Assembly (NCBI GenBank): GCA_016195685.1
Contig: JACPZE010000020.1
Span: forward strand, 85,725 to 149,724
Direction of reading: 5' to 3'
Source: Candidatus Gottesmanbacteria bacterium
GTDB lineage: Bacteria; Patescibacteriota; Microgenomatia; 2-02-FULL-39-11
DNA: 64,000 nt
The notes beneath the pieces are model-generated. The model did no database searches, was not told where the DNA came from, and saw nothing but the letters and a program-made list of their open reading frames with translations. The position numbers and the translations under genes were made by a program. Positions 9,800 through 49,018 of the stretch are shown here, piece by piece. Position 1 is the first letter of the stretch; every line of letters starts with the position of its first letter.

Positions 9800-11428
9800 A
9801 TGAAAAGACTGCTGCCCTTCATAGTAATATTTTTTGTAGTACTTATTTATACCAAACCTTTTTTCCGTCCCGGTTTTTTCCCCACTCATGACGGTGAATG
9901 GGCGATAGTACGTTTAGCAGAGATGCAAAGGGAAATAAAGGATTTACAGATTCCTCCCCGATGGGCTGATTATTTAAATCATGGTTACGGTTATCCTCTT
10001 TTTAACTTTACTTACCCTTTTCCGTTTTATGTTGGTACTGCATTAAGATTTTTTCATATAGGACTTACAGATAGTATCAAAATCATATTTGTGGCCAGTG
10101 CCGTTTTATCTGCTTTGTTTATGTTTCTTTTAGGTCGAGAACTGGGAGGGGAATATGCAGGGCTTCTTGCAGCTATATTTTATAGTGTTGCACCATTTAG
10201 GCTGGTAGATCTTTATATACGCGGATCCATAGGAGAGTCTTTGAGCCTTGCTATTTTTCCAATGCTTTTTTATCTGAGTCTGAAATTTATCCTCAAACCC
10301 AGTTTAATGAAAATGTCATTATGTTCAGTTGTTCTTGCGACTCTTATTCTTTCTCATAATATAATGGCTTTGGTTTTTTTCCCATTTTGGATTGTTTTTT
10401 TATACGTGTGTCTTATTTCATATTACGAAGATATAAAGTTCTACACATGGCGTTATTTTCTGCCGATGATCGCATTGGGCCTTGGTTTAGCAGCATATTT
10501 TTTCATACCTGCACTCGCAGAAAAGCAATTAGTTTTATTATCACAGGTAAAATTGGCAGACGTATCTTCAAATTTTATCAATATCAGTGATTATCTCCTT
10601 TCTCCATGGAATTACGGAATCAAACCTTCATATCAACTAGGTTGGGCTCATATTTTGGCTGGCATTTTAGCAATTATAAGTCTTATATTATCGAAAGATA
10701 TAGATAAGAAGAAATTTTGGCCCCTTTTAATTTTTATTTTGGGAAGCGTGTTTATCCTGATATTTTATGCTCATCCATTTTCCGCCGAATTTTGGAATGT
10801 ACCTCCTCTTTCGTGGTTTGACTTTCCATGGAGATTTCTCACCCCTCTGGCTTTTTTCCTGGCCCTCTCAACCATATTTCTTCCAATACATAAAGTAACT
10901 AAATTTATCGGCGGCGTTTTAGCAATCTTAACAGTAATTTTGAGTATTAATTTTGCTTCTCCACCGACTTTTATAAATAATCCTGATGCATACTATGCGA
11001 CCAACGATGCGACTACGACCTCCATGGATGAGTTAATGCCTAATTGGGTTATCAATAAACCAACCAACCGCTACGGACAAAAAATCGAGGTAGAACAAGG
11101 TAAGGCTCAACTCTATAATTTAGAATATAAATCAAACTCCATTAAATTTCGAGTTATCTCACAATCTCCAAGTATAGTAAAAGTGAATACGATTTATTAT
11201 CCAGGATGGAAATTCTATATAAATGACAAAGAAATTACTGTAAATTACAAAAGTCCCGATGGGCTTATAAGATTTGAAGCCCCTTCGGGCAATATGGGAG
11301 TTACTGGTTTGTTTAAAGAAACAAGTTTAAGATTTTGGAGTAATATTATTTCAGCTTTGAGTTTCACACTTATTATTCTGTTTTTTATATTCTCTTTGGT
11401 TAAGTGGGTAAGACTAAAGTTTGTATGA
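9800..11428 (+). CDS. YfhO/PTPS-related-family polytopic membrane protein (putative GT-C glycosyltransferase), paralog A
   Basis: N-terminal FPTHDGEW...QIPPRWADYLNHGYGYPLFNFTYPFPFY and C-terminal [17 protein letters not shown] motifs are shared with the ORFs at 11425 and 47366, and resemble the C-terminus of the long YfhO-like ORF at 26486. Confidence 0.55.
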   Translation: MKRLLPFIVIFFVVLIYTKPFFRPGFFPTHDGEWAIVRLAEMQREIKDLQIPPRWADYLNHGYGYPLFNFTYPFPFYVGTALRFFHIGLTDSIKIIFVASAVLSALFMFLLGRELGGEYAGLLAAIFYSVAPFRLVDLYIRGSIGESLSLAIFPMLFYLSLKFILKPSLMKMSLCSVVLATLILSHNIMALVFFPFWIVFLYVCLISYYEDIKFYTWRYFLPMIALGLGLAAYFFIPALAEKQLVLLSQVKLADVSSNFINISDYLLSPWNYGIKPSYQLGWAHILAGILAIISLILSKDIDKKKFWPLLIFILGSVFILIFYAHPFSAEFWNVPPLSWFDFPWRFLTPLAFFLALSTIFLPIHKVTKFIGGVLAILTVILSINFASPPTFINNPDAYYATNDATTTSMDELMPNWVINKPTNRYGQKIEVEQGKAQLYNLEYKSNSIKFRVISQSPSIVKVNTIYYPGWKFYINDKEITVNYKSPDGLIRFEAPSGNMGVTGLFKETSLRFWSNIISALSFTLIILFFIFSLVKWVRLKFV

Positions 11429-13149
11429 AAGGTTATCAACGGCGTGTTTTATACTTAATTTTAGTTATAATATTTTCTTTTTGGACTGTAAAACCACTCT
11501 TTCACGAAGGCTTTTTCCCCATGCATGATGATACTCAGCCTGCTCGCGTTTATGAGATGGCTCAAGCACTATCCCACGGTCAATTTCCGGTAAGATGGGT
11601 AGGAGATTTAGGATATGGATACGGATACCCTCTATTTAATTTTTATGCACCTTTGCCTTATTATACAGGTGCAATTTTCAATCTGATAGGATTTGATTCG
11701 ATTGTTTCTACAAAAATAATGTTTTTTATCGGAATTATCCTGGCAGGCATAACGATGTTTTACTTATTAACTAATCTAGTTGGTGAAGCAGGAGCATTGG
11801 TAGGAAGTCTGTTATACATGTACGCTCCTTATCATGCCATAGATATTTACGTTCGGGGAGCTGTGAGCGAGATTTATGCAATTGGGTTTTTGCCTTTGTT
11901 TCTTGCAGGTATTTATAGAATTTTTTCTAGTAAACTCGTAACACATCACAAGAATAATTTATTTAATTTAATCCCAACTTTAAAGTCTGATAAAGAAATT
12001 AAAAAAGGAATTTTAACAAGCATAATAGGTTTTGCGGTAATATTACTTTCTCATAATCTTATGGGGATGATCGTAATAGAATTTTTTATTGTGGGGATGA
12101 TTGTTTATTTTCTGTTTCATTTATTTAAAAGACAAAATCCAACAAAACTGTATTTATTAATGACAGTTTTCCTAATAGGATTAGGTATTTCTTCTTTTTT
12201 TATTCTTCCGGCATTTGCTGAGAAAAATTTTACTCGCATCAATGAATTGATTACCGGAGGTAGCAAATTTAGTGACCATTTTGTATATCTTGATCAATTA
12301 TGGAGTAGTCCCTGGGGATTTGGAGGTTCAGCTTTGGGTCGTGCTGATGGTATGTCTTTTATGATCGGTAAAATCCATCTATTATTAGGAATTTTATCTA
12401 TTCCGGTAGTTTTAATCTTTCATAAACGCAAAAAAATAAATAACTTTCAATTTTCTATTTTTTCCTCGCAACTAATACTTTTTGTAATTTCTGTTTTTCT
12501 TGTACTTGATATTTCCGGTTATATTTGGGCTTTAATGCCAGGATTTGCTTATATTCAATACCCTTGGAGATTTTTGGCTATTTCTATTTTCAGTATCTCT
12601 GCAATGATTTCCTTCATAGTAGTTTGTCTTAGGAAAGAGATTCAATTAATTTTTTGCATTGTTTTTATTTTATTGATGATATGGTTTAATTCAAGATATT
12701 TTGTTCCAAAAGAATATCTTCCTCTCAAACAATCAGATTACACAAGCAACCTGAATCTTCGGTATAAAATTTCTAAAATATCAGACGAATATTTGCCGTA
12801 TGATTTTATAATCCCAAAATCAACATATGAAATAGCATTGCAGGGCATAAATTCTTCTCCTGATTTTAAGGTAAAATATTTTTCAGATACTCCGGTAAAG
12901 AAATTATTTAATATTGAATCTGCTGCTAGTAAATCTTTGCAGACAAATGTTGCTTATTTTCCAGGTTGGCAGGTGAAAATAGATGGTTTCGATACAACTT
13001 TAAAATCTAGAAACGGTCGAATTGAAATTTTTATTCCACAAGGCCAACATAGTATTGAATTTAACCTTCGCAATACTTTCATACGGATACTATCAAATAG
13101 TATTTCCATATTTGCCCTTTTTTTGCTAGTATATATCATTGTTTTGTGA
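11425..13149 (+). CDS. YfhO/PTPS-related-family polytopic membrane protein, paralog B
   Basis: FPMHDDTQPARVYEMAQ...QFPVRWVGDLGYGYGYPLFNFYAPLPYY and C-terminal VAYFPGWQVKIDGFDT. The ATG at 11425 forms an ATGA overlap with the upstream stop; the track start 11404 lies further upstream. Confidence 0.55.
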   Translation: MKGYQRRVLYLILVIIFSFWTVKPLFHEGFFPMHDDTQPARVYEMAQALSHGQFPVRWVGDLGYGYGYPLFNFYAPLPYYTGAIFNLIGFDSIVSTKIMFFIGIILAGITMFYLLTNLVGEAGALVGSLLYMYAPYHAIDIYVRGAVSEIYAIGFLPLFLAGIYRIFSSKLVTHHKNNLFNLIPTLKSDKEIKKGILTSIIGFAVILLSHNLMGMIVIEFFIVGMIVYFLFHLFKRQNPTKLYLLMTVFLIGLGISSFFILPAFAEKNFTRINELITGGSKFSDHFVYLDQLWSSPWGFGGSALGRADGMSFMIGKIHLLLGILSIPVVLIFHKRKKINNFQFSIFSSQLILFVISVFLVLDISGYIWALMPGFAYIQYPWRFLAISIFSISAMISFIVVCLRKEIQLIFCIVFILLMIWFNSRYFVPKEYLPLKQSDYTSNLNLRYKISKISDEYLPYDFIIPKSTYEIALQGINSSPDFKVKYFSDTPVKKLFNIESAASKSLQTNVAYFPGWQVKIDGFDTTLKSRNGRIEIFIPQGQHSIEFNLRNTFIRILSNSISIFALFLLVYIIVL

Positions 13150-13156
13150 GTACACT

Positions 13157-13894
13157 ATGAAAAAAACTTCAGTTGAAATAGTAGTTCCTATTTATAATGA
13201 GGAAAAAGAGTTGGAAAGCAGCGTAGATAAACTTTATTCGTTTGCCCAGCAGAATTTACTTTCTTATGATTGGCATATTACTGTAGCCGATAATGCATCC
13301 ACAGATAATAGTTTCTCTATAGCACAAAAAATGGTTAAACAAAAACCTCATTTGGGATGTATGCACCTGGATCAAAAAGGCAGGGGCCGTGCAGTCAAAA
13401 AAGTATGGAGAAAAAGTATTGCAGATATTTTGGTGTATATGGATGTGGATCTCTCGACAGATTTGAAAAATCTACCCTCCCTTGTAGCGGCACTTGAGAA
13501 TAATTATGATATTGCTATTGGCTCAAGACTTTTACCAAAGTCGAAAGTTCTAAATAGACCTTTGAAACGTGAAGTTTTATCGCGTATCTATAACGTTTTG
13601 ATAAAAATATTTTTTCAGGTTCACTTTTCAGATGCTCAGTGCGGTTTTAAAGGTATTACGAGGAAAGTGGTAGATGATCTTTTACCCTTTATCGTAGATG
13701 ATGCATGGTTTTTTGATAGTGAACTTTTAATCGTTGGTGAAAAAGTTGGATTTAAAATTTACGAAGAACCGGTTCGATGGGTTGATAATCCGGGATCAAC
13801 AGTCAGAGTGCTCTCGACAGTCTCAGGTGATCTAGCGGGATTATGGCGATTATTTTGGGATAGGCCTTGGTGTAGATATAAAAATAATAAATAA
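13157..13894 (+). CDS. GT2 glycosyltransferase (DPM1/GtrB-like polyprenol-phosphate sugar synthase candidate)
   Basis: VEIVVPIYNEEKEL ... TVADNASTDNS ... DVDLSTD. The ATG at 13157 is 8 bp after the upstream stop. Confidence 0.7.
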   Translation: MKKTSVEIVVPIYNEEKELESSVDKLYSFAQQNLLSYDWHITVADNASTDNSFSIAQKMVKQKPHLGCMHLDQKGRGRAVKKVWRKSIADILVYMDVDLSTDLKNLPSLVAALENNYDIAIGSRLLPKSKVLNRPLKREVLSRIYNVLIKIFFQVHFSDAQCGFKGITRKVVDDLLPFIVDDAWFFDSELLIVGEKVGFKIYEEPVRWVDNPGSTVRVLSTVSGDLAGLWRLFWDRPWCRYKNNK

Positions 13895-13895
13895 A

Positions 13896-18565: not shown

Positions 18566-19679
18566 AAAGATACAATCGGTGCTTTGGTGGATATTATTCA
18601 CGCTGATAATTACCAAGTTGCTTTTTTACTTAATATCAAATAGACAGTTTTTTACTAGAATTTTCGATCCTGTCTATTATGGTGATCTATATTCCAAATC
18701 ACAATATGTAGTGGGATCAAGATCCGTAGGCGGCATTGGTGATGATGGATTGTATGCCTTTGCAGGATATTATTATTTATTCCAAAAAGGTGATGTCTCT
18801 GCAGTGAATTTTGAGCACCCGCCGTTAGGAAAATATCTAATAGGTTTGTCGATACTAATTTTTCGGAATGAAAATCTCATCAATATAATTTATTTTTCGA
18901 TATTGTTATTTGTTACTTATAAAATCGGGAATATAATACTTAAAAATAAACTGCTGTCATTACTATCGGTAGGGATAATCTCTTTTGACCCCCTTTTTTT
19001 GGATAATCTTATCAGATCACTTTTGGATTTACCGTTCACGCTGTTTTTTATACTCGGGATATATTTTTTTCTTATGAGTTTGCACAATGCCAAATATCAT
19101 TATTTTTCAATGCTTTTCTGGGGGATATCTTTTTCGACGAGATTTTTCCCAGCATTATTAATAATTTATGGATTCCTGTTTTTAGTGATTTTTCTGTATA
19201 AACGAAAAGATCTCTCAATATTGATTAAAGCCTCATTTTTAATACCTATTGTTTATCTCCTTTCACACATATCTTTTTTTGTATACCATCCGTCACTGGT
19301 AGAATTCTTGCGGCATAAAAAATGGATGTTGGCTTGGTTTACCGGATCACCGAAAATATTTGGAAATATCTGGCGGAACATTTTTACAGGGTTTTATATT
19401 GATACTACGAATAAATTAATGAAAAATGAATTTTGGATACTCTTAATTCCGATTATTATTATATTTTCGCTAATCCCCACAGTGAAAATTCAGAAAAAAA
19501 ATAGTCTAGAGTTTATAGTGTTATATGGATTAAATATTTTGTATCTAGCCTATGTAACGATTCTAACGGACGGTAATCAAAAATTCATGATGCCTATATA
19601 TCCAATGCTTTGTATTATGGCTGTAAGTAATTTTACCCTTTTGTATAGTATAATAGCCTCATGGAAGAAGTCGAATTAG
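18537..19679 (+). CDS. PMT-family (GT39) membrane mannosyltransferase-like protein
   Basis: DDGLYAFAGYYYLFQKGD...NFEHPPLGKYLIGL matches the DE...HPPL(A)K signature loop of protein O-mannosyltransferases. It is much shorter (380 aa) than eukaryotic PMTs. Confidence 0.55.
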   Translation: MNILKLIQSKKIQSVLWWILFTLIITKLLFYLISNRQFFTRIFDPVYYGDLYSKSQYVVGSRSVGGIGDDGLYAFAGYYYLFQKGDVSAVNFEHPPLGKYLIGLSILIFRNENLINIIYFSILLFVTYKIGNIILKNKLLSLLSVGIISFDPLFLDNLIRSLLDLPFTLFFILGIYFFLMSLHNAKYHYFSMLFWGISFSTRFFPALLIIYGFLFLVIFLYKRKDLSILIKASFLIPIVYLLSHISFFVYHPSLVEFLRHKKWMLAWFTGSPKIFGNIWRNIFTGFYIDTTNKLMKNEFWILLIPIIIIFSLIPTVKIQKKNSLEFIVLYGLNILYLAYVTILTDGNQKFMMPIYPMLCIMAVSNFTLLYSIIASWKKSN

Positions 19680-21184
19680 CGATAATAAAAGGAAAGATAG
19701 TCAAAGGCGTTGCAGCTTTAATCTCCAGAACCTTTATTATTCAAGTCATTACTCAGATAGCCAACTTGGTTCTTCTTGCATTATTATCACAATACGAATA
19801 CGGGATTTATTGGATAGTTATAGCTATAATCTCGTTTCTTTCGTATTTTTCGGATATAGGTCTTGCGGCAGCGTTAATACAAAAAAAAGAAGATCCTACG
19901 CGGCAGGATTTAGTCACAGCTTTTACAATTCAGCAAATATTAGTTGGAATCATAGTAATTTTCACTTTTGTTTATACGCCTTCTCTAAGCTCATTTTTCC
20001 ATCTGACTCAAGATACTGAATTTGTGATAAGAGCTTTTATAATATCCTTTTTCCTTTCCTCATTGAAAACTATTCCATCAGTTATTCTTGAAAGAAAGCT
20101 GGATTTTACCAAACTTATTTTGCCTCAAATTTTTGAGACAGCTGCTTTTTATTTAGTTACTATTATTTTGGCTCTATCGAATTTTGGTGTAGCAAGTTTT
20201 GCGTGGGCAGCAGTAGTTAGGGGAATCGTTGGGCTAGTTGCGATTTATCTCATTAATCCTTGGCCCATAGGAATTGGTATTTCAAGAAAATCAATTCGTC
20301 ATTTGTTAACTTTTGGAATTCCTTTTCAGCTGAACTCATGCTTGGCACTTATAAAAGATGACTTGATGACTTTATTTCTGGGGCGAATACTTAGCTTCAG
20401 CAGAGTTCATTTTATTCCCCCAACAGTAGCTTGTGCGAAAGCTCCTAACATATGTGAAATTGGTTATATAGGTGTAGCAAAGAGAAATGCTGAAATTTCT
20501 CTTAAGTTGGTTATGGATAATGTTATTAGAGTAACTTTTCCAGTATATTCCAGACTCCAAAAAGATATGGAAATTTTAGGTAAAGCTGTACAAAAATCAT
20601 TAACTTTCTTAGCATTGCTGATAATTCCATCAAATATTATCTTAGCGATATATATAAAACCTATAATGCATTTGATACCAAAATATGCGAAATGGGAACC
20701 GACACTTTTTTCATTTTATTTCTTTTCTTTTTCTTCTGTGATGTCCTCTTTTTCTACACCATTATTTAATGCACTCAATGCAATTGGAAAAGTTAAAACG
20801 ACTTTGATTCTTATGATTTTTTGGACGACTCTAACTTGGATTTTGTATCCAATTTTTGTTTACTTTTATGGATATAATGGAGTCTCCATGGCTGCATTTG
20901 TAATCTCATTTACGGCTATTATTCCTGTATTTATAATGAAAAAGTTCGTTCAATTTTCCGTAATCTCATCTCTGTATAAACCCGTAATAATTTCTTTTAT
21001 AACAGCATTACCGGCATTTATTCTCATGAAATTATCACAAGACTTGCTATTGGTTATATTTTCTCTAGCTTTAACTTTTGGCATATATACTTTACTGGTA
21101 TGGCTTTGGATGGGAGAGGATGTTAGACCATACCTGCCTCATCAGTTGGCAGGTTTGCCAAAATTCTTCAAGCGCAACAAGTGA
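19661..21184 (+). CDS. wzx: Wzx-type oligosaccharide flippase (MOP/polysaccharide biosynthesis protein family)
   Basis: N-terminus KGVAALISRTFIIQVITQIANLVLLALLSQYEYGIYWIV...DIGLAAALIQKKE is typical of Wzx/PST proteins. About 12-14 TM helices. Confidence 0.7.
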   Translation: MEEVELAIIKGKIVKGVAALISRTFIIQVITQIANLVLLALLSQYEYGIYWIVIAIISFLSYFSDIGLAAALIQKKEDPTRQDLVTAFTIQQILVGIIVIFTFVYTPSLSSFFHLTQDTEFVIRAFIISFFLSSLKTIPSVILERKLDFTKLILPQIFETAAFYLVTIILALSNFGVASFAWAAVVRGIVGLVAIYLINPWPIGIGISRKSIRHLLTFGIPFQLNSCLALIKDDLMTLFLGRILSFSRVHFIPPTVACAKAPNICEIGYIGVAKRNAEISLKLVMDNVIRVTFPVYSRLQKDMEILGKAVQKSLTFLALLIIPSNIILAIYIKPIMHLIPKYAKWEPTLFSFYFFSFSSVMSSFSTPLFNALNAIGKVKTTLILMIFWTTLTWILYPIFVYFYGYNGVSMAAFVISFTAIIPVFIMKKFVQFSVISSLYKPVIISFITALPAFILMKLSQDLLLVIFSLALTFGIYTLLVWLWMGEDVRPYLPHQLAGLPKFFKRNK

Positions 21185-22856: not shown

Positions 22857-23762
22857 ATGATTTCTGCTGTTGTTCATACCTATAACGAGGAAAAAAACAT
22901 CGAACGCTGTCTGTCTTCGCTTTCTTTCGTTGACGAGATCGTACTGATAGATATGGATTCAAAAGATCGTACAAGGGAAATTGCATCCAATTACAAAGCG
23001 AAAATATTTAATCATCCTTATACTGGATTTGTAGAGCCTGCTAGAAATTTTGGCATTCAAAAAGTTCTTGGATCTTGGGTTTTGATAGTGGATGCGGATG
23101 AAGAAATATCGAAAACTTTAGCTGATAAACTTATTTCTATTTCAAGAGAGAAGCGGGTCGACTATTGTCGAGTAGCAAGAAAGAATATAATTTTTCACAA
23201 ATGGATTAAGCATTCTGGTTGGTGGCCCGATTATCAGATCCGATTTTTTAAAAAGGGATGCGTATCTTGGAGTGAGAAAATTCACGGTGTCCCGTTGACT
23301 CGCGGAACTGGCTTAGATTTAGAAGCAAATTCAGATTTAAGCATAAGTCATTATAACTACCAAACAATAGAGCAATACATCGCTAGGTTGAATCGGTATA
23401 CAAATATTTCCGCGAAAGAATTTTTTTTGTCGAATAAAAAATTTTCTTATCGTGATGTGGTAAATCTCTCAAGTAAGGAATTTATCAATAGATACTTAGT
23501 GTGGGAAGGATATAAAGATGGTATTCACGGCTTAGCCTTAGCCTTTTTGCAGTCATTATCCGAAGTAGTAACTTATTTAAAATTGTGGGAGTTAGAAAAT
23601 TTTAAAGAGGAGCGAATTTCTTTATTGGAATCAAAAGAGGTAATATCTGATGGGCAAAACGAAACTCAATATTGGTTTTATAACACTCTTCTTAAAGAAC
23701 CGCATGATTTTATCAGTGATTTGATTTGGAGATTAAAAAGGAAATTATCTCAGCATGGATAA
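22857..23762 (+). CDS. GT2 glycosyltransferase (paralog set with 24681 and 49015)
   Basis: ISAVVHTYNEEKNIERCLSSLSFVDEIVLIDMDSKDRTREIA ... VDADEEI. Confidence 0.7.
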   Translation: MISAVVHTYNEEKNIERCLSSLSFVDEIVLIDMDSKDRTREIASNYKAKIFNHPYTGFVEPARNFGIQKVLGSWVLIVDADEEISKTLADKLISISREKRVDYCRVARKNIIFHKWIKHSGWWPDYQIRFFKKGCVSWSEKIHGVPLTRGTGLDLEANSDLSISHYNYQTIEQYIARLNRYTNISAKEFFLSNKKFSYRDVVNLSSKEFINRYLVWEGYKDGIHGLALAFLQSLSEVVTYLKLWELENFKEERISLLESKEVISDGQNETQYWFYNTLLKEPHDFISDLIWRLKRKLSQHG

Positions 23763-24684
23763 GGCAGCTATAATCATCGTCCACTATAAAAACGAGAAAG
23801 ATACCTTGGAGTGTTTGAATTCTATCTTTATAAATCATTCATCAAATAAAAAGGTACAGGTCATCGTCGTTATAAATCCTCCGTATGTATCAGAGTCGGT
23901 AGGCAAAAATGATAGTTTTAAAACAATCTTAAGAAAAAAATACCCTCAAGTAATTGTTATTGAAAATAATACTAATACAGGTTTTGCTCAGGCTAATAAC
24001 ATTGGTATTCAGAAAGCCCTAGATTTGGAGTGTGAATATATACTTTTACTAAATAACGATACCATTGTTTCTCTTGAGCTTTTAGATAAATTGATTAAGT
24101 ATGCAAAATCTGATTCAAAAGTTGGTGTCATGTCTCCAAAAATTTATTTTGCAAAAGGTTTTGAATACCATAAAGATAGATATAAAGATAAAGAAAAAGG
24201 AAAAGTAATATGGTACGCTGGTGGTAAGATTGATTGGGCAAATGTTTATGCTTCTCACAAGGGCGTAGATGAAGTAGACGTTGGTCAATATGGTGAAACA
24301 TGCGAAACTGATTTCGCTACAGGGTGTTGTATGTTAATAACGCGTAAAACTATCGATAAAATTGGTCTTTTTGACTCAAAATATTTTTTGTATTATGAGG
24401 ATGTAGATTATTCTGTCCGAGTTAAAAATAATAATATGAAGGTAATTTATTTCCCCAAGGTTGTTTTATGGCATAAAAATGCCTCATCATCTGGTAAACC
24501 TGGATCAAAAATGCATATTTACTATCAAAACCGCAACCGACTCTACTTTGGGTTTAAATATGCCACTAGCAAAACAAAAAAATCCCTTTTTTGGGATAGT
24601 TTGAGATTACTGATCAAAGGCGGAGTATACACAAAGAGTACAATGGATTACCACTTGGGGAGACTTGGCAAGGCCAGTATATGA
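23755..24684 (+). CDS. GT2 glycosyltransferase (rhamnosyl/WbbL-like type)
   Basis: AAIIIVHYKNEKDTLECLNSI ... NTGFAQANNIGIQKAL ... LLNNDT ... YYEDVDYS. Confidence 0.7.
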   Translation: MDKAAIIIVHYKNEKDTLECLNSIFINHSSNKKVQVIVVINPPYVSESVGKNDSFKTILRKKYPQVIVIENNTNTGFAQANNIGIQKALDLECEYILLLNNDTIVSLELLDKLIKYAKSDSKVGVMSPKIYFAKGFEYHKDRYKDKEKGKVIWYAGGKIDWANVYASHKGVDEVDVGQYGETCETDFATGCCMLITRKTIDKIGLFDSKYFLYYEDVDYSVRVKNNNMKVIYFPKVVLWHKNASSSGKPGSKMHIYYQNRNRLYFGFKYATSKTKKSLFWDSLRLLIKGGVYTKSTMDYHLGRLGKASI

Positions 24685-25436
24685 ATATAAGCGCGATCAT
24701 TATTAGCCGAAATGAAGAAGAAAATATCTCTGCATGTATAAAAGCACTGGATTTTGCTGACGAGATTATCGTAATTGATAATTGCTCTTCCGACAATACT
24801 CGTGAATTGGCAGAAAAGTCGGGAGCTAAAGTCTATGAAATTTCAGGATTGGATTTTTCATATCTTAGAAATATTGGAAAAGAAAAAGCAGCGTCTCAGT
24901 GGCTACTGTATATTGATGCAGATGAAAGGGTGAGTAAAAATTTGTCTATAGAAATAAAAAAAGCAGTCAAAAATCCAGAAAGTAATTCTGCATTTTCTAT
25001 CGTCAGAAAAAACTATTTTCTAGGGAAACCTTCTCCAAAATTAGAAAGGATAAACAGACTTATCAAAAAAGACGCTTTAATCGGTTGGCATGGCTCGCTG
25101 CATGAAAGTCCAATAATAACCGGTTCAATTGGTGAATTACAATTCTATTTGTTACATTATACTCACAAGAATATTTCTTCAATGGTTGCCAAAACCAATG
25201 AATGGTCAGCTATAGAAGCGCAACTTTTATACAAGAGTAATCATCCTCTCATGAGAGAATGGCGTTTTTTTAGAATTTTGGTAACTTCTTTTTTCCGATC
25301 TTACATACAAAATCAAGCTTGGAAAATGGGGACAACAGGTTTTATAGAAAGTACTTATCAGGCATTTAGTAATTTCATTACATACGCCAAATTATGGGAA
25401 AAACAGAATAAATCTGAAGTTGCAAATGAAAAATGA
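24681..25436 (+). CDS. GT2 glycosyltransferase (paralog of 22857 and 49015)
   Basis: ISAIIISRNEEENISACIKALDFADEIIVIDNCSSDNTRELAEK ... IDADERV. Confidence 0.7.
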   Translation: MNISAIIISRNEEENISACIKALDFADEIIVIDNCSSDNTRELAEKSGAKVYEISGLDFSYLRNIGKEKAASQWLLYIDADERVSKNLSIEIKKAVKNPESNSAFSIVRKNYFLGKPSPKLERINRLIKKDALIGWHGSLHESPIITGSIGELQFYLLHYTHKNISSMVAKTNEWSAIEAQLLYKSNHPLMREWRFFRILVTSFFRSYIQNQAWKMGTTGFIESTYQAFSNFITYAKLWEKQNKSEVANEK

Positions 25437-26517
25437 AAAAGAAATAAAAAACTTAAAAATCGGCATTTATAGTCCATATCTCAATATTTTTGGTGGCGGA
25501 GAAAGATATATACTTTCGATTGCAAGAGCATTTAGCCAAGATAGCGAAGTCTATCTATACGCAGATAAAGATCTGAGTAAAAGATCCTTGGAGATATTTG
25601 GAATAAACCTAAAAAATACTCATTTGTTACCTTCTGATTTATTACTTCAACAGAATTTTCTTAAAAAATATGCTTATCTACACAAATACGATTTGTTTTT
25701 TTACATGAGTGATGGCAGCCTCTTTTTTTCCTCTGCAAAAAAGAATTTTCTCATAGTTCAGTCTCCTCTTCATATACCTAACAAAAATTTTCTTAATAGA
25801 ATGAAATTAGCTAACTGGAAGATAATTTGTTATTCACAGTTTATGAGAAATATAATCAGACAAAAATTAAACTGCGGCATAAAAAGTTTAACACTAGCAC
25901 CTTGTATCGACGTGCCGAACAAAAAGGAAAAAGTGACAAAAGATAATATTATTTTATCAGTAGGCCGATTTTTCCCATATCCTCACGATAAAAAACATGA
26001 AATTCTAGTAGATTTATTTAAAAAGTCATATAGTAAATACTTTTCTGGATGGAAATTAATAATTGCAGGAGGATTAACTGAAAAAGGCGGGGATGATATT
26101 TTCAGGCGTCTAAAAGATAAAAGTATAGGATATCCGATCGAGATTATGTCAAATCTTTCATCAGATAGATTATTAGAATTTTACCAAAAGTCTAAAATAT
26201 ACTGGCATGCTGCAGGATTTGGTGAAGATTTAACCACAAATCCTGAAAAAGCAGAGCATTTTGGAATAGCACCTCTTGAGGCGATGGCAAATGGTGTAGT
26301 TCCGATTGTCTTTAATGGTGGAGGACTTATGGATATTATTGATGGGGAAAATGGTGGTTATTTATGGAATACTTTGGAGGAACTAACGCAAAAGACGGTT
26401 AATTTAATCGTTGATGAAAAATTATTAACTCATCAGGAAAAATTGGTAAGAGCAGAGGCAAATAAATATTCCTGCGATCAATTTTATGGAAAATTGGAAA
26501 AAATTATTATTGAATAA
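25420..26517 (+). CDS. GT4 (retaining) glycosyltransferase
   Basis: C-terminal EX7E-type region GIAPLEAMANGVVPIVFNGGGLMDIID of GT-B/GT4 enzymes. Confidence 0.7.
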   Translation: MQMKNEKEIKNLKIGIYSPYLNIFGGGERYILSIARAFSQDSEVYLYADKDLSKRSLEIFGINLKNTHLLPSDLLLQQNFLKKYAYLHKYDLFFYMSDGSLFFSSAKKNFLIVQSPLHIPNKNFLNRMKLANWKIICYSQFMRNIIRQKLNCGIKSLTLAPCIDVPNKKEKVTKDNIILSVGRFFPYPHDKKHEILVDLFKKSYSKYFSGWKLIIAGGLTEKGGDDIFRRLKDKSIGYPIEIMSNLSSDRLLEFYQKSKIYWHAAGFGEDLTTNPEKAEHFGIAPLEAMANGVVPIVFNGGGLMDIIDGENGGYLWNTLEELTQKTVNLIVDEKLLTHQEKLVRAEANKYSCDQFYGKLEKIIIE

Positions 26518-28780
26518 TATCTATCCGATATTATTGATAGGAACGGTTTTGTTATTTTTCTATCCTACTTTCCTGTCCAGACGGATTCCTATTCCAGCAG
26601 ATACAATTGTAGGGATGTATCATCCTTGGCGGGATGAGATTTGGGATAACTTTACAAGCGGTATACCATATAAGAATTTTCTGATTACAGATCCTGTAAG
26701 ACAGCAGTATGTCTGGCGGAAAATGGCGATAGAAGAGTTAAAAAAGGGAATTTTACCTGTTTGGAATCCCTATTCTTTTTCCGGATCACCTCTATTGGCT
26801 AACTTTCAATCTGCCGCATTTTATCCGCTTAATCTGCTGTATTTTGTCTTGCCGTTTAACATTGTTTGGACTTTGCAGGTCATATTACAACCGATACTTG
26901 CTTCTGTTTTTCTTTATTTATATTTAAGATATATCAAAGTAAGTAAAATGGGAAGCTTCTTCGGTGGGGTTACATTCGCATTCTGCGGATTTTCTATTGC
27001 ATGGTTGGAATGGAATACGATTATCCAAACAGTTTTATGGCTCCCACTAATACTTCTTGCCAAGGAAAAGTTATTAGCGAAAATAACAATTAAATGGTCA
27101 ATGATTCTTTTTTTTGCTGAAATTTCCTCATTTTTAGCAGGTCATATTCAGGTGTTATTTTATACCCTCATAGTTAGCAATTCTTATCTTTTTGTCAGAA
27201 TTATTCAGTTATCATTCAGAGACCAAAAAGGAAAAAATATTTTTAATTCGGTCTTTAAAAGATATATACTATTTCTATTCATTGGATTAATTGTTTTGTT
27301 AAGTACTTCTGTCCAATGGGCTCCAACTCTTCAATTTATATTACATAGCGCTCGGGATTTTGACCAGAGCTCATGGATGAAGGATGGATGGTTTATTCCA
27401 TGGCAAAATGCAATCCAATTTATAGCGCCTGACTTTTTCGGAAACCCGGCAACTGGAAATTATTGGGGTATATGGAACTATGGTGAATTTATTGGTTTTA
27501 TCGGTAGTGCTCCCTTAATTCTTGCCTGTTATAGTCTAATATTTAAAAAAGACAGGAAAGTCTTATTTTTTGGAAGCCTGGCTTTTTTAGGTGCTATTTT
27601 TTCTTTCCCTACACTATTAGCCAAGCTTCCTTTTATATTTAAAATTCCTTTTATATCCACAAGCCAACCAACTAGACTTATGGTGATTATAGATTTTGCA
27701 CTATGTATTTTGGCTGCATTCGGATTTGATCAGTTTGTTAAAGACAAAAAGCCACAAAAAATAATATTTCTTTTGGGTGTTTTTGCAGTATTGTTATTCT
27801 GTTTGTGGATAGTTGTCTTGAAATCTTCCATTTTTCATTTACAGATAAATTTCGAAAACTTAACAGTGATGAAAAACAATCTAATTATCCCAACAGCGTT
27901 TATGATTTTAAGTGCAATAGTCTTAATCTTCATTACTAAGGCGAAAAATAATTTTAAAAAAGCGGCAACAATGCTTTTTTTCGTAATAGTAATATTAGAA
28001 TTATTAAGGTTTGGATGGAAATTTACCCCATTTTCAAATGAGAATTGGATATTTCCGGAAACAAAAGCAATTTCATATCTGAGACAAAACGCTAATTATT
28101 ATAGAGTTATGTTTGTCGATAGAAGACTTATGCCTCCTAATTTTTCCATATATTATGGATTGTATGATGTGAGCGGCTATGACCCTTTGTACTTCCTTAA
28201 TTATGGTCAATTAGTGGCTGCATGGGAAAGAGATAAGCCAGATATTACACCAGCTTCGTTCAACAGAATCATTACTCCTTCTAAATTCGAAAACTTTATT
28301 ACAGATTTACTAGGTGTCAAATTCATCGTGAGCATGAATCCTTTGATATCATCAAAGCTCATCTTTATTCTTCAGGAAGGTAATACACATATATACGAGA
28401 ATAAAAACGTTTTTCCAAAAGTTTTCCTTACTGAGGATATTATAAGCGTGGATAATCCACAAGAAATTATTACAAAGATGTTTGAGTTAGGTGATAATTT
28501 AAGACGTGTTGCCGTTTTATCAGATAAAATTGATCATACATATCAAAAACTAATTGGGGGTGAAACAGCAAATATTACTTCTTATTTATCAAATAAAGTA
28601 GAGATAAAAGTAAAGTCTAATTCAACAAGATTATTAGTTTTGACCGATATTTATTCTCCATCATGGAAAGTTTTTATTGATGGAAAAAAGGAAAAATTAT
28701 ACCAAGTGGATTTTGCATTGCGCGGAGTTTTAGTTCCTAGCGGTAATCATAATGTAGAGTTTAGAGAGGATTTGCTATGA
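26486..28780 (+). CDS. YfhO-family large polytopic membrane protein (GT-C-type)
   Basis: 764 aa with many TM helices. C-terminal beta-rich tail DIYSPSWKVFIDGKKEKLYQVDFALRGVLVPSGNHNVEF resembles the YfhO C-terminus. Confidence 0.55.
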   Translation: MENWKKLLLNNIYPILLIGTVLLFFYPTFLSRRIPIPADTIVGMYHPWRDEIWDNFTSGIPYKNFLITDPVRQQYVWRKMAIEELKKGILPVWNPYSFSGSPLLANFQSAAFYPLNLLYFVLPFNIVWTLQVILQPILASVFLYLYLRYIKVSKMGSFFGGVTFAFCGFSIAWLEWNTIIQTVLWLPLILLAKEKLLAKITIKWSMILFFAEISSFLAGHIQVLFYTLIVSNSYLFVRIIQLSFRDQKGKNIFNSVFKRYILFLFIGLIVLLSTSVQWAPTLQFILHSARDFDQSSWMKDGWFIPWQNAIQFIAPDFFGNPATGNYWGIWNYGEFIGFIGSAPLILACYSLIFKKDRKVLFFGSLAFLGAIFSFPTLLAKLPFIFKIPFISTSQPTRLMVIIDFALCILAAFGFDQFVKDKKPQKIIFLLGVFAVLLFCLWIVVLKSSIFHLQINFENLTVMKNNLIIPTAFMILSAIVLIFITKAKNNFKKAATMLFFVIVILELLRFGWKFTPFSNENWIFPETKAISYLRQNANYYRVMFVDRRLMPPNFSIYYGLYDVSGYDPLYFLNYGQLVAAWERDKPDITPASFNRIITPSKFENFITDLLGVKFIVSMNPLISSKLIFILQEGNTHIYENKNVFPKVFLTEDIISVDNPQEIITKMFELGDNLRRVAVLSDKIDHTYQKLIGGETANITSYLSNKVEIKVKSNSTRLLVLTDIYSPSWKVFIDGKKEKLYQVDFALRGVLVPSGNHNVEFREDLL

Positions 28781-29688: not shown

Positions 29689-29716
29689 GTTAAATTGTTA
29701 TGCTAAAATACCAATT

Positions 29717-31393: not shown

Positions 31394-31404
31394 TTTCAAA
31401 AACC

Positions 31405-41005: not shown

Positions 41006-41006
41006 A

Positions 41007-44227: not shown

Positions 44228-44236
44228 AATACAAGA

Positions 44237-45169
44237 ATGAGAATCTTAGTTACTGGAGGAGCCGGATTTATCGCTTCCCATATAGTCGATGCTTATATAA
44301 AAGATGGTCATGAAGTAATCATTATAGATAATCTATCCACAGGGAAAAAAGATTTCATAAATAAAAAAGCCCGGTTTTACAAAATTGATATCAGAAATAG
44401 AAGAGAATTAGAATTAGTTCTCAAAAAAGAAAAGCCTTCGGTAATCAATCATCATGCGGCACAAATAAGTGTACGCCATTCTGTAGAGAATCCATTTTTT
44501 GATCTGGAGATAAATTTAATCGGATTACTAAATCTAATTCAGCTAGGAAAAAAAGCGGGTTTAAAGAAAATGATTTTTGCTTCATCTGGAGGAGTTGTAT
44601 ACGGAGAGGCGGATACAATTCCTACGCCAGAGAACTATGTACCGCTTAAACCGCAATCTCCCTATGGAATAACTAAATTATCGAGTGAATACTATCTAGA
44701 TTACTTTTTTCAAAATTACCGGATTCCTTATATTGCTTTACGCTATTCCAATGTTTACGGTCCGAGGCAAAACCCCCATGGGGAAGCCGGAGTTATAGCA
44801 ATTTTCACATCGAAGCTTCTCAGAGGTGAAACCTCAATAATTAATGGGGATGGGTTGCAGACTAGGGATTATGTTTATGTAAAAGATGTAGTGGAGGCTA
44901 ATCGGAAAGCTCTGATTTCAGATAAAGTAGGCGCTTTTAACATAGGAACGTCCAGAGAAACAAATGTTTTAGAGATCTTTAACCGTTTGAGAAAGTTAAT
45001 AGGTAAAAATACTACGGTTTCCCATGGATCGGCAAAGAAAGGGGAGCAAAAAAGAAGCTGTTTGAATTGTAACTTAGCATTAAAAGTGTTAGGTTGGAAG
45101 GCAGAAAGTACTTTAAATCAGGGGCTAAAAAAAACCGTAGAATATTTTCAGCAAAATGAAAAAGTTTAA
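44237..45169 (+). CDS. UDP-glucose 4-epimerase-family NAD-dependent epimerase (GalE-like)
   Basis: ILVTGGAGFIASHIVDAY, catalytic SPYGITK (YxxxK), ASSGGVVYGE. 310 aa. Confidence 0.65.
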   Translation: MRILVTGGAGFIASHIVDAYIKDGHEVIIIDNLSTGKKDFINKKARFYKIDIRNRRELELVLKKEKPSVINHHAAQISVRHSVENPFFDLEINLIGLLNLIQLGKKAGLKKMIFASSGGVVYGEADTIPTPENYVPLKPQSPYGITKLSSEYYLDYFFQNYRIPYIALRYSNVYGPRQNPHGEAGVIAIFTSKLLRGETSIINGDGLQTRDYVYVKDVVEANRKALISDKVGAFNIGTSRETNVLEIFNRLRKLIGKNTTVSHGSAKKGEQKRSCLNCNLALKVLGWKAESTLNQGLKKTVEYFQQNEKV

Positions 45170-46622
45170 CAATAACGGATCTATTATTATAATGGGTGGC
45201 GGCTTGGCTGGACTTGCCGCGGGGTATGAACTTTCAAGAGCTAAAAAAAGGGTACTAATCATAGAAAAATGGGATGACGTAGGGGGGTTAGCTCGAACTC
45301 TTGAAGTGAATGGATTTCGTTTTGATACTGGTCCTCATCGGTGGTATACAAAAAGCAATATGGTCAATGATTGGATGCTTAAAATACTAGGTGATGAGGT
45401 GATAAAAGTACCGAGGTTAACCAGAATCTATTTTGATAACAGATTTTTCTTTTATCCAATCAAGTTAATGAATGCACTTACGGGGATAGGAATTATTACA
45501 GCTTGTCGTGCTGTGATAGATTATATTTTTGCCAGATTCCGAGCGCGTTTGTTAAAGCCTCACCTTTTGACTATGGAAGATGGTTACATCAACCAATTTG
45601 GCAAAACTCTTTACGAAACTTTCTTTAAGCGTTACAGCGAAAAACTATGGGGACAGGACTGCAAACAAATATCGATTGACTGGGTAGGTCAGAGAACTCG
45701 GGGACTTAACATTCTGACTATACTAAAAGATACTTTTTTTAAAAGTAAAGACGTTGTTTCTTTGGTGGATGAATTTTCTTACCCTAAGAAGGGGATTGGT
45801 AGATTAGCAGAAAAGTTAGTAATCGAAATCAAAAAAAGAGGTGGTGAAATCATTACATCCGCCGAAGTTAATGAGATTAATGTAATAAAAAATAAAATAT
45901 CAAGCATAGGTTTCAAAAAGAATGGTCAAAAGACTTTGGTTAAAGGTCAACAATTTATCTCCAGCATACCAATCGATGATTTTGTAAAATTAATAAATCC
46001 CAAAATAGATAAAAAAATAATTCATCTTGCGCAAAAACTTCAGTATAGAGATGAATTGCAGGTTGCACTGTTTGTAAAAAAAACTCACATAACTGCCGAT
46101 ACTTGGATATATGTACATCCCAAGACAATTCCTTTTATGAGAGTGATGGAGATGGATAATTGGAGTGATGACTTGTCTCCTGTCGGAACTACGACTTTGG
46201 TTTTTGAAGTAGCCTGCAATATTGGAGATAATATGTGGAAGAAAAGTGATACCGAAGTTATCAAAATGATTTCTGATTCATATATAAATGAGTTTAAACT
46301 AATTAACAAAAATGATATTATTGGGGGTTTTGTCCACAGAGTGCCGAAAGAATACCCTGTTTACCATATAGGCTATAAAGAAGATACTGATATCATAAAA
46401 AAACATCTTAGTGGTTTATCAAATATACAGTTAGTTGGTAGGAATGGGACTTTTAGATATAATAACATGGATCATTCAGTAGAGATGGGTTTATATGCCG
46501 CTTGGAATATTCTAAAAAACAAGAAGATGTATGAAATAGAATCTATAAACATCGAGCGAGAGTATCTTGAAGAAAAAAAGATCGAAAATATCGAAGATTT
46601 TTCTCTTGAAGAAAATGATTAA
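45156..46622 (+). CDS. FAD-dependent oxidoreductase of the amine-oxidase/UDP-galactopyranose-mutase superfamily (UGM-like candidate)
   Basis: N-terminal dinucleotide-binding [17 protein letters not shown]...[16 protein letters not shown]...GPHRW. Internal block [21 protein letters not shown] resembles the Glf/UGM segment ...ELYEKFFKGYTRKQWG.D. Adjacent to the GalE-like gene. Confidence 0.45.
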
Positions 46623-47379
46623 GAAGTCTCCGCAGACTCCCAAAGTGATTGTGGTAATGCCTGCATATAACGCCGCAAGAACGTTAGAAAAAACATATCA
46701 TGATATCCCAAAAATAATTGATGAAGTACTGGTTATAGATGATGATAGTAATGATGAGACCGTATTCATAGCAAAAAAACTCCAACTTCCCGTTTTTGTC
46801 CATAAAAAAAATCTAGGTTATGGTGGTAATCAAAAGACATGTTACGTAGAAGCACTGAAAAGAAAAGCAGATATTATTGTAATGATTCATCCTGACTATC
46901 AATATGATGCTACTCTTACAGAAGTTTTAATTAAGCCTATTTTACAGGGAAGAGAAGATATTATGCTCGGAAGTCGAATAAGAAGCAGAAGAGAAGCTCT
47001 TGTTGGAGGAATGCCTTTATATAAATATATTAGCAACAGAGCCTTGACCTTTTTGGAAAATATAGTTCTGGGTCTTAATTTAAGTGAATATCATACTGGT
47101 TTTCGAGCGTTTAGAAGAGAAGTGCTTGAAAAGGTTCCATTTGATTTATTTTCAAATGATTTTGTTTTTGATCAGGAAATCCTGATTGTTGCTCATCAAT
47201 TGGGATTTCGCATGGGAGAGATAGCAGTACCTGTACGTTATTTTCCTGAGGCTTCTTCTATTAATTTTATGCGTTCAGTGAAATATGGTTTTATGATAAT
47301 AATCATATTAATTAGATTTATATTGGATAATTTCGGTATTAAGCAAAAAATATTCAGACATAAGAATGAAAAAAATTGA
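46615..47379 (+). CDS. GT2 glycosyltransferase (DPM1-like polyprenol-phosphate sugar synthase candidate)
   Basis: [17 protein letters not shown] ... [12 protein letters not shown] ... [13 protein letters not shown] ... [10 protein letters not shown] at 46615 avoids a 56-bp overlap with the upstream gene. Confidence 0.7.
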
Positions 47380-49018
47380 TTACCTCATCATATTATTTAT
47401 AATTTCAGCATCGGTAATCGTTTTGAAAGACTTATTCAAACCAGGTATGTATACAAGTCATGACGGTATACATCAAGTGGTGCGTTTTTATTATTTTGAC
47501 CAGATATTGAGAGAGGGACAAATACCACCTCGTTGGGTAGGGGGACTGATGAACGGTTTTGGTTATCCTCTTTTTATTTTTTCATATCAACTGCCATGGT
47601 TTATAGCAGAAGTAATACATAATTTGGGAAGTTCGATCATCGATAGTGTGAAGATGACGTTTCTAGTTGGATTTGCAATATCTGGAATCACCATGTATCT
47701 TTTTCAAAAAGACATTTTTGGCAGATTACCGGCTTTTGCCGGTACCGCCCTTTATCTTATTTCTCCTTACCGCTTTTCCAACATTTTTGTCCGGGGTGCT
47801 ATTGGGGATGCAACAGCCTTTATATTTGCACCCCTGCTTTTTTGGGCATTTTTCCATTTAAAAAGCAGTTGGTCATGGAGGTGGATTGCTATAGGGGCGG
47901 GAGCCTTGGTAGGACTTATTTTATCCCATGTAATGGTAACAGCACTATTTATGAGTAGTTTAATAATTTATCTGATTTTTTTTCTTGCAACTATAAAAGA
48001 TAAACTAAGTTTTTTGAAAAGTTTTTTAAGCGTGATTTTATTGGGAAGCGGAATATCCGCATATTATTTAATTCCTTCATTGGTTGAAAAAAGTAATACT
48101 CAATTCCAGTCGCTTATGAGTCAGATTTTCATTGGATCATATTTTCCGACGATAAGTGAGTTAATTTATTCCAAGTGGGGATACGGTGTTTTTCATTCAA
48201 AAGAAGGGGCGATGTCACTGCAGGTAGGATTGACAGGGTGGTTTGTGGTCTTTATGACGCTGATTGGAGTTATATTCTTACCGTTATTATATAGAAAAAC
48301 TTCTAAACCAGAGGTAGAACTTTTTGTTTCTGGGAGAATCATTCTAGTTATTTTTGCTTTTACCATTTTTATGATGCTGCCTGCATCATTGCCTATTTGG
48401 AAAATAATAAGCCCAGTAGTTTTTGTTGATTTTCCCTGGCGCTATCTTGCGGTAATTACCTTTTTTGTTTCTCTCTGTGCTGGATTATTGATTGCCTTAA
48501 TAAAAAGATTTGAATTTATTTTGACATTATTTTTAATATTGTCTGCTTTATATTTTAACCGCAACCATTTGCGAATCAACGAAACGCTTGGTTGGGATTT
48601 ACCGTTTATGCTTAAGCTTGAAAGGACAACAAATAGTTTTGATGAATATAAACCGAAATGGGTTAAAGAAGAATTTATTAAAGAGAAAAAGCCTAGAATT
48701 GAATTTTCCGATAGCAATGCAAAAATTACTATAAATAAAGTTATATCAAATTATCAAAAATTTACCATTAACAATAAAGAGGATGGAAAAGTACGAGTCA
48801 ATACAATTTATTACCCCGGATGGGAGCTATTTGTAAATGGTAAATCTAAAGTCATAAATTATCAAAGCACCGGTTTAATTGAATTTGACCTCGATAGCGG
48901 CAACTCAGAGATAATTTTGAAATTTGTAGATACTCCATTGAGAAAACTAAGTAATGCCTTAAGTCTTTTTTCCATAGGAATCTTACTCTTTGGTTTTATA
49001 AAATATAGAAAAGTATGA
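47366..49018 (+). CDS. YfhO/PTPS-related-family polytopic membrane protein, paralog C
   Basis: [50 protein letters not shown] and C-terminal [23 protein letters not shown] match paralogs A and B at 9800 and 11425. Confidence 0.55.

Follow-up and report, generated by a model that had tools for sequence, protein, structure and literature searches.

A 64-kb stretch of DNA from a Candidatus Gottesmanbacteria bacterium (contig JACPZE010000020.1, positions 85,725 to 149,724; the whole 64,000 nucleotides are called the window below) carries four genes that very probably encode integral-membrane glycosyltransferases of the GT-C fold, all from one sub-branch of that fold. Three are paralogs resembling the PTPS_related family (Pfam PF10131), here called A, B and C, and the fourth encodes a YfhO-like protein (PF09586). 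All four lie in a large, co-directional cell-surface glycan gene cluster of ~61 kb (408-61738), and they are likely to take part in multi-component transmembrane glycosylation, in which GT-C enzymes use lipid-linked sugars. The exact product of the gene for paralog A is present at NCBI as 'hypothetical protein HY029_03475 [Candidatus Gottesmanbacteria bacterium]', and the source organism is therefore an uncultured bacterium of the Microgenomates group within the Candidate Phyla Radiation (CPR). The four genes, as predicted, are as follows.

9800..11428, + strand: paralog A, PTPS_related-type GT-C protein (542 aa; PF10131, 43.6 bits; NCBI 'hypothetical protein HY029_03475')
11425..13149, + strand: paralog B, PTPS_related-type GT-C protein (574 aa from ATG; assigned by paralogy to A and C)
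26486..28780, + strand: YfhO-family GT-C protein (764 aa; PF09586, 93.9 bits, E 1.2e-26, profile positions 68-599)
47366..49018, + strand: paralog C, PTPS_related-type GT-C protein (550 aa; PF10131, 28.0 bits; NCBI 'glycosyltransferase family 39 protein')

Three PTPS_related-type paralogs and a YfhO-like relative

An earlier note on this DNA, made by reading the letters alone, had proposed these four open reading frames (ORFs), and all are present on the + strand where it placed them. It had also called A, B and C paralogs, which is borne out by an all-against-all BLASTP comparison of the 51 ORFs in the window that are 150 aa or longer. The three proteins share 27-29% identity over ~560-590 aligned columns, nearly their full length (A versus C, E 3e-71; B versus C, 2.7e-54; B versus A, 1.6e-51), and this similarity is far beyond chance. 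The terminal motifs quoted in the note are found in the three-way alignment with small deviations. The N-terminal loop contains H30-D31, R38, Q50-x-P52-x-R54-W55 and G64-Y65-P66-L67-F68-x-F70 (paralog A numbering, used throughout), and a Y-[YF]-P-G-W motif lies near the C-terminus of all three. Paralog C reads GFGYPLFIF in the loop and lacks the 'E' of R..E..Q, and paralog B reads YFPGW. The description of the paralogs as dispersed fits only C, which lies ~34 kb downstream of the others, whereas A and B form an adjacent tandem pair in which the start codon of B and the stop codon of A overlap (ATGA). B would be 581 aa long from an alternative GTG start at 11404; from the ATG, which the public gene call takes, it is 574 aa.

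Pfam places most of these proteins directly. Against gathering thresholds of 26.4 bits for PF10131 and 28.5 bits for PF09586, paralog A (43.6 bits) and, marginally, paralog C (28.0 bits) pass the former and the YfhO-like protein passes the latter, so that only B among the four proposed members has no direct match. By its sequence, B can still be classed as a PTPS_related protein, because it is an unambiguous paralog of the other two, its ortholog in a related locus (L003) matches PF10131, and 51 of the 53 members of the family alignment that includes it match PF10131 at E ≤ 0.01. Paralog B also scores 100% in hhalign against the profile made from that alignment. The PF10131 match covers the membrane core, at profile positions ~5-304, which is only the first half of the 621-position model, and the C-terminal beta-sandwich of the three paralogs is recognised by the end of the YfhO model instead. 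In paralog C this gives a YfhO match confined to the last 70 residues and below threshold (25.5 versus 28.5 bits). On these sequence comparisons A, B and C are best described as PTPS_related members that are YfhO-like, but not YfhO members by Pfam threshold. The note had named them PTPS-related or YfhO-like; the family and a profile-level link to YfhO stand, and membership of YfhO proper does not. None of the four proteins falls into an NCBIfam family. PF10131 belongs to the GT-C clan CL0111, where its entry reads 'function unknown' (PMC7801869), and an exhaustive profile search returned 20,915 clusters at 50% identity at E ≤ 1e-3, including 6,516 at E ≤ 1e-30.

The YfhO-like protein has the C-terminus that was quoted for it, is a YfhO member at 93.9 bits, and has homologs named 'YfhO family protein' by NCBI. 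BLASTP links it to the three paralogs only through a 69-residue C-terminal match (E 1.7e-4). The kinship of all four proteins, as proposed earlier, becomes clear in hhalign comparisons of a paralog A family profile (53 sequences) with a YfhO-like family profile (42 sequences). The two profiles match at 96.5% (E 8.4e-10) in the membrane core, along 326 columns, pairing D31 with D50 of the YfhO-like protein, P-x-R-W with L-P-x-W, and Y-P-L with Y-P-L. In addition, the paralog A profile matches the YfhO-like protein alone at 94% (E 1.5e-7) over the terminal beta-rich domain. As a control for specificity, both profiles were compared with each of the 46 ORFs in the window that are 250 aa or longer. 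The paralog A profile exceeded 90% only for the three paralogs, the YfhO-like protein and a PMT_2-type gene at 8294 (~94.7-94.8%); the YfhO-like profile gave 100% for its own protein and 77-88% for the three paralogs; and all other ORFs stayed below 30% with both. On these profile comparisons the grouping is specific and real. Generic membrane-protein noise as its source was ruled out, the 8294 product being the only other high-scoring ORF and itself a GT-C clan member. These results show PF10131 to be a sister of YfhO, with the same aspartate in the first loop and the same terminal beta-sandwich.

With paralog A, the YfhO-like protein and the family profile as queries, sequence searches of the PDB returned nothing meaningful, and no solved structure of either family could be detected by sequence. 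The AlphaFold2 model of paralog A, built from the 53-sequence alignment, has a mean predicted local distance difference test (pLDDT) of 92.2 and a predicted TM-score (pTM) of 0.91. It consists of ~11 membrane helices (residues 5-385) with two short helices in the first loop (32-47 and 74-84), followed by an eight-stranded beta-sandwich (429-505) and a final membrane helix (509-541). The model of the YfhO-like protein (pLDDT 88.8, pTM 0.89) has a larger alpha/beta extracytoplasmic domain and a similar beta-sandwich at its end. In Foldseek searches of the PDB, the top 30 matches of paralog A and the top 17 of the YfhO-like protein were all GT-C enzymes, among them STT3 (including STT3A), PglB, AglB, AftD, ArnT, AftA, Emb and DPY19, with probability 1.00 and E-values down to 8e-6. 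AftD gave the lowest root-mean-square deviation (rmsd) of the full-length matches to paralog A (5.7 A over 407 columns), and ArnT matched the YfhO-like protein with a target-normalised TM-score (TMt) of 0.50-0.52. Local matches of the C-terminal domain were to beta-sandwiches of glycoside hydrolases. Both modelled proteins thus have a predicted GT-C fold, as the note had anticipated.

The prominence of STT3, PglB and AglB among these matches raises the question of whether the four proteins are protein O- or N-glycosyltransferases that modify secreted or surface proteins such as S-layer proteins or pilins, in the manner of PMT/Pmt, streptococcal Pgf or the oligosaccharyltransferases (OSTs). We consider this unlikely. 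NCBI attaches the label 'glycosyltransferase family 39' to paralog C, but PMT (PF02366) and PMT_2 (PF13231) fail to match A, B or C even at E up to 1, the only tie being the clan-level profile link to the PMT_2 gene at 8294, and 5 of the 53 relatives have weak PMT_2 matches. PgfS and AglJ are among the best NCBIfam matches of the glycosyltransferase encoded directly downstream of the A/B pair; there is, however, no obvious target protein gene in the locus. Moreover, the OST-defining periplasmic domain has no match, and the C-terminal domain is a small beta-sandwich.

Across 53 orthologs and paralogs, D31, R38, P52, R54, G64-Y65-P66, F68, K94, R141-G142, H186, E241-K242, W332, P343, E411, P414, P468 and W470 are invariant. 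In a second set of 151 sequences from 80 genomes, divided into three subfamilies, G25, D31, G64, P66, Y77, R141, G142, P154, H186, P237, E241, G281, W344, P468, W470, G497 and T508 are at least 90% identical in every subfamily. Residue D31 directly follows membrane helix 1, and its aligned counterpart in the YfhO-like family is D50, which is invariant there. Counting helices from the cytoplasmic, positively charged N-terminus of the model would put D31, R141, H186, E241, W344, W470 and the beta-sandwich on the outer side of the membrane. It is an established hallmark of GT-C catalysis that the first outer loop opens with an invariant aspartate (see also PMC8035078), and the conservation of this residue here suggests a catalytic role for D31.

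Paralog B has diverged so far that the Pfam model misses it, and 20 extra residues are inserted after P154, as might be expected if one or more of the paralogs were inactive duplicates that persist as pseudo-enzymes or scaffolds. Yet D31, R141-G142, H186, E241 and W344 are kept in all three proteins, and each subfamily is conserved with intact ORFs across dozens of genomes. Judged by sequence, no paralog looks inactivated. We find this explanation very improbable and rejected it on the conservation of the key residues in all three subfamilies.

The surrounding glycan locus and its conservation

Fifty closely spaced genes run along the + strand of the window (408-61738, ~33% G+C), and a single - strand ORF comes after them. 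Glycosyltransferases acting in the cytoplasm comprise 13 of family 2 (GT2) and four of family 4 (GT4), and there is a Wzx-type flippase. Enzymes of sugar-nucleotide metabolism and modification include a UDP-glucose dehydrogenase, six epimerase/dehydratases of the short-chain dehydrogenase/reductase (SDR) type, a flavin adenine dinucleotide (FAD) oxidoreductase, hexapeptide acyltransferases and a methyltransferase. The note's count of four members was too low: ~17 GT-C genes can be recognised, namely seven that Pfam assigns to PMT_2 and four further ones added by paralogy, together with the PTPS-like trio and the YfhO, PIG-V-like and MptA_B-family genes. Three further polytopic membrane proteins (17174, 31405 and 39023) stand outside this set. 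A scan for promoters and terminators between 9000 and 18000 was uninformative, with fewer promoter-like sites than in shuffled controls and no convincing terminators. Neighbouring features are listed below.

6340-7092, + strand: DPMS-like GT2 (Pfam)
7073-8266, + strand: MptA_B-type GT-C (PF26314)
8294-9784, + strand: PMT_2-type GT-C (Pfam), the last gene of the block upstream of paralog A
13139..13894, + strand: short GT2, candidate polyprenyl-phosphate-sugar synthase, directly downstream of the A/B pair
19661..21184, + strand: Wzx-type (Polysacc_synt_3) flippase (PF13440, E 1.2e-40), downstream of the pair in most loci
22857..26517, + strand: GT2-GT2-GT2-GT4 block (Pfam), directly upstream of the YfhO-like gene
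44237-45169, + strand: SDR epimerase/dehydratase (Pfam), order conserved
45156-46622, + strand: FAD oxidoreductase, PRK07208 / UDP-galactopyranose-mutase-like (NF005548, 452.7 bits, cut-off 389)
46567..47379, + strand: short GT2, candidate polyprenyl-phosphate-sugar synthase, directly upstream of paralog C
51966-52646, + strand: DPMS-like GT2 (PF00535), GacI-like
52652-53014, + strand: small DUF2304 membrane protein (PF10066, E 1.2e-20), GacJ-like
61700-63124, - strand: sole large opposite-strand ORF (474 aa, no Pfam match), at the downstream end of the 50-gene cluster

The note had stated that YfhO family members glycosylate teichoic acids. This is so for YfhO of Firmicutes, where the proteins of B. 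subtilis and S. aureus (lipoteichoic acid) and of Listeria (wall teichoic acid) are N-acetylglucosamine (GlcNAc) transferases that work with CsbB and GtcA (PMC8035078). The four proteins might accordingly transfer GlcNAc or another sugar from an undecaprenyl-phosphate (Und-P) sugar onto lipoteichoic or wall teichoic acid, and the YfhO-like protein is a bona fide PF09586 member. However, teichoic-acid synthesis genes are missing from the window, with no gene of the LtaS, TagF, TagB or TagO type among its 50; A, B and C fall outside YfhO by Pfam threshold; and the gene adjoining that of the YfhO-like protein does not encode a GT2 of the CsbB/DPMS kind. A role in teichoic-acid glycosylation is thus quite unlikely here.

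Homolog searches returned more than 800 relatives of paralog A, more than 2,400 of the YfhO-like protein and more than 500 of paralog C. Wherever the source gives a name, the homologs of paralog A belong to Gottesmanbacteria or Levybacteria. A scan of 185,579 species genomes yielded 236 relatives, and 80 loci were kept. These come from Gottesman-, Levy-, Roizman-, Shapiro- and Curtissbacteria, from other Patescibacteria, and from metagenome-assembled genomes (MAGs) with implausible placeholder taxon labels. Many TPA-assembled MAGs with the locus (L005, L008, L011 and others) bear the title 'uncultured Gammaproteobacteria bacterium', and two that of 'Candidatus Saccharimonadales'. Such names seem to be placeholders or misassignments, because the gene content and the 40-69% identity of the proteins tie them to Gottesmanbacteria and Levybacteria.

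ORFs of these loci were classed by their best BLASTP match to the window genes. A B-type gene directly follows the A-type gene in 60 of the 66 evaluable loci, and a DPMS-like GT2 gene follows the pair in 55 of 60. Directly before the A-type gene lies a PMT_2-type GT-C gene (70 of 74 loci). The recurring order is GT2 - MptA_B - PMT_2 - (YfhO / PMT_2 copies) - A - B - GT2 - Wzx - GT2 - GT2 - GT2 - GT4 - YfhO, and the window shows this order with insertions. Many loci of the Levybacteria type have the order GT2b-GT2c-GT2b-GT4-YfhO. Paralog C has a setting of its own, kept around orthologs at 44-51% identity in three loci (L085, L086 and L087): PMT_2 copies - SDR - FAD oxidoreductase - GT2 - C - GT2 - GT4 - PIG-V-like - GT2 - DUF2304 - GT2. 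The GT2 gene directly before C is present in L085 and L086 and missing in L087. Because the A/B pair and paralog C each have conserved gene settings in relatives, the three paralogs are old, separately maintained lineages and not recent duplicates.

Four long predicted proteins from the exhaustive profile search (P0241, P0242, P0243 and P0265) fuse two to six GT-C modules. In P0241 (1116 aa), A-type and B-type modules are joined in their genomic order through a helix-RKR-helix junction, and P0243 (3329 aa, from DNA of high G+C) combines YfhO-like, PTPS-like and other GT-C-like modules. Such fusions hint at physical cooperation between GT-C proteins. Literature searches combining CPR, Patescibacteria or Microgenomates with GT-C, YfhO or mannosyltransferase returned nothing relevant.

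Candidate donor synthases and other neighbours

Six short GT2 enzymes of the window (3681, 6340, 13139, 16048, 46567 and 51966) form one BLAST group. The GT2 that follows the A/B pair (13139) has its best PDB matches in dolichol-phosphate-mannose synthase (DPMS; 5mlz, 4.8e-17) and ArnC, and its best NCBIfam matches, all below cut-off, are ArnC, PgfS, AglJ and PpgS. For the GT2 preceding paralog C (46567), the only PDB match is DPMS (5mlz, 1.5e-9) and the best NCBIfam matches are AglJ and PpgS, again below cut-off. Most GT2 synthases of the locus have no membrane segments. The 3681 product is a GT2 fused to a GtrA membrane domain, the only GtrA domain seen in the window.

The genes immediately upstream of the paralog C module offer a possible source for its sugar. 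The SDR (44237) and the FAD oxidoreductase (45156) are the probable makers of the sugar donor used there. The latter, which matches the UDP-GALP_mutase model of NCBIfam at 63.9 bits, below cut-off, might supply a furanose or otherwise modified donor. Its gene always lies between those for the SDR and the GT2/paralog C pair.

Downstream, a further GT2 (51966), with no membrane segment, is paired with a 120-aa DUF2304 protein whose ORF (52652-53014) sits in an apparent intergenic gap. The DUF2304 protein GacJ stimulates GacI, an Und-P-GlcNAc synthase (bioRxiv 10.1101/180810), and the pairing seen here is the same as in GacI/GacJ and PpgS/Rv3632.

Other parts of the locus also carry GT-C genes. 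Seven PMT_2-type paralogs (29672, 32180, 33903, 35569, 37392, 41007 and 42614) lie in tandem within 29672-44227, with 28-41% identity and E-values down to 6e-134. Among them are 31405 (287 aa), which weakly resembles parts of these paralogs, and 39023 (660 aa), which has no Pfam match. The 7073-8266 product, a polytopic protein of 397 aa, gave an empty Pfam scan, but precomputed annotation of the identical gene assigns it to PF26314 (MptA_B_family); this model is probably absent from, or newer than, the Pfam version scanned. The 17174-18565 product (463 aa) is polytopic and without a Pfam match, and its first membrane helix is directly followed by an 'FFQDDWF' motif, placed as in GT-C enzymes. 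The ortholog in L003 weakly matches PF19528 (GT_STM0557_N), and hhalign comparisons with the PTPS-like and YfhO-like profiles were negative. It may be another, so far unrecognised, GT-C protein.

At the upstream end, 408-6337 resembles the Arn pathway, with a UDP-glucose dehydrogenase, two SDRs, the GT2-GtrA fusion and a PMT_2 GT-C. One of the SDRs has sub-threshold likeness to UDP-xylose synthase and the C-terminal domain of ArnA. This content suggests a lipid-linked donor derived from a pentose or a uronic acid. The gene order of this module is conserved in Gottesmanbacteria loci.

Proposed pathway and relation to known systems

A scheme in which a GT-A enzyme, a flippase and a GT-C enzyme act in turn is established for YfhO, GtlB, GacL and CsdB/D/F (PMC8035078), in the systems YfhO/CsbB, GtlA/B, GacI/J/L and CsdA-F. 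By analogy, the SDR and FAD enzymes of the locus would tailor nucleotide sugars, and the short cytoplasmic GT2 enzymes would load sugars from these onto polyprenyl phosphate. The lipid-linked sugar would then be flipped across the membrane, the candidates for this step being the Wzx-type protein and the GtrA domain fused to a GT2. On the outer face each GT-C protein would transfer its sugar to an acceptor, using the invariant aspartate (D31 of paralog A or D50 of the YfhO-like protein) that opens the first outer loop, and the beta-sandwich may help to hold the acceptor, a role suggested for the extracellular domain of S. aureus YfhO (PMC8035078). From the flanking DPMS/ArnC/PpgS-like GT2 enzymes and the GacJ-like DUF2304 protein, we infer that the GT-C enzymes use polyprenyl-phosphate-sugar donors. 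The note's suggestion of multiple distinct lipid-linked sugar transfers is a reasonable one given six DPMS/ArnC-like GT2 genes. A cell-envelope glycopolymer or glycoprotein produced by the same ~61-kb locus is the most likely acceptor; the locus is conserved across Microgenomates-group CPR bacteria.

Several observations weigh against multi-component glycosylation of this kind. The NCBIfam matches of the flanking GT2 enzymes all fall far below the curated cut-offs, and the GT2 beside the YfhO-like gene (28777) looks generic and not DPMS- or CsbB-like. Paralog B reaches no Pfam threshold of any family. In Foldseek the TM-scores stay moderate (0.38-0.52), which is what distant GT-C members would be expected to give. 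A general scan of the window genes found no stand-alone GtrA-type flippase, initiating phosphoglycosyl transferase or teichoic-acid synthase. Finally, the literature searched holds no characterised PF10131 member and no biochemical data.

The number of GT-C genes, ~17 against only six DPMS-like GT2 genes, also invites a different division of labour, in which the four proteins build chains and do not decorate them. Together with ~13 other GT-C enzymes they would use a few polyprenyl-phosphate monosaccharides to make a branched heteropolysaccharide outside the membrane, in the way that mycobacterial arabinogalactan and lipoarabinomannan are made by Emb, Aft and MptA/B, and A and B may form a heterodimer like EmbA-EmbB. 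MptA_B-family and PIG-V-like GT-C genes are present in the locus, AftD is the full-length match of lowest rmsd to paralog A (5.7 A over 407 columns), and A and B, adjacent in 60 of 66 loci, are fused in the same order in P0241. The fusion proteins, however, may in some cases be artefacts of assembly or gene calling, and the Wzx-type flippase and many cytoplasmic GT2 and GT4 enzymes fit a classical lipid-linked repeat unit that is decorated later. Chain building is thus a possible but doubtful alternative to decoration with lipid-linked sugars.

Among known systems, YfhO includes the YfhO-like protein as a clear member, which shares with A, B and C the aspartate of the first extracytoplasmic loop, the P-x-[RV]-W and Y-P-L motifs, the membrane core and a terminal Y-x-P-x-W...DG beta-sandwich. 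In contrast to the YfhO-like protein, the three paralogs are ~220 residues shorter, lack the large extracytoplasmic alpha/beta domain and have an extra membrane helix at the end. The YfhO/CsbB/GtcA arrangement also differs, as no CsbB-like GT2 adjoins the YfhO-like gene, the window has no stand-alone GtcA, and the host is a CPR bacterium. The multi-component systems GtrA/B/V, GacI-J-K-L, CsdAB, CsdCD, CsdEF and ArnC/ArnT resemble the locus in having a GT2 synthase beside a GT-C enzyme, and the GacJ-like DUF2304 protein and the Wzx-type flippase add to the likeness. In the window, however, such modules are multiplied in one ~61-kb locus with ~17 GT-C genes, and most GT2 enzymes have no membrane segments. 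The likeness to EmbA/B/C, AftA-D and MptA/B of mycobacteria and corynebacteria lies in the GT-C fold, the MptA_B-family member and the sharing of few lipid-linked donors by many GT-C enzymes. It does not extend to family membership at the sequence level (two of 53 relatives with weak GT-C_AftD matches), and no donor pathway of the DprE1/DprE2 type was identified.

All four proteins belong to families already known, and their annotation is solid and not surprising. What goes beyond routine annotation is the profile and fold link between PF10131 and YfhO, the conserved A/B tandem, and the size and conservation of a GT-C-rich Microgenomates locus, of which we found no description in the searchable literature. 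PF10131 is a large family (~20,900 clusters at 50% identity) without a characterised member in the literature searched, and the conserved gene order beside candidate lipid-sugar synthases provides a concrete hypothesis for its function. The locus further suggests that surface glycans take up a very large part of a small CPR genome, which is relevant to how episymbiotic or ultra-small cells build their envelope.

A bolder proposal, by analogy with the mycobacterial enzymes, is that the A/B pair, paralog C and the YfhO-like protein form the core of a Microgenomates-wide machine of ~60 kb and ~17 GT-C enzymes, with A and B as an obligate heterodimer, that builds an undescribed envelope glycopolymer largely outside the membrane. 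We regard this as speculative and rather improbable. The locus would deserve more interest if it did specify an envelope polymer particular to the CPR and assembled outside the membrane, and such a machine, if real, would provide the first function for PF10131 and define a cell-wall component specific to the CPR.

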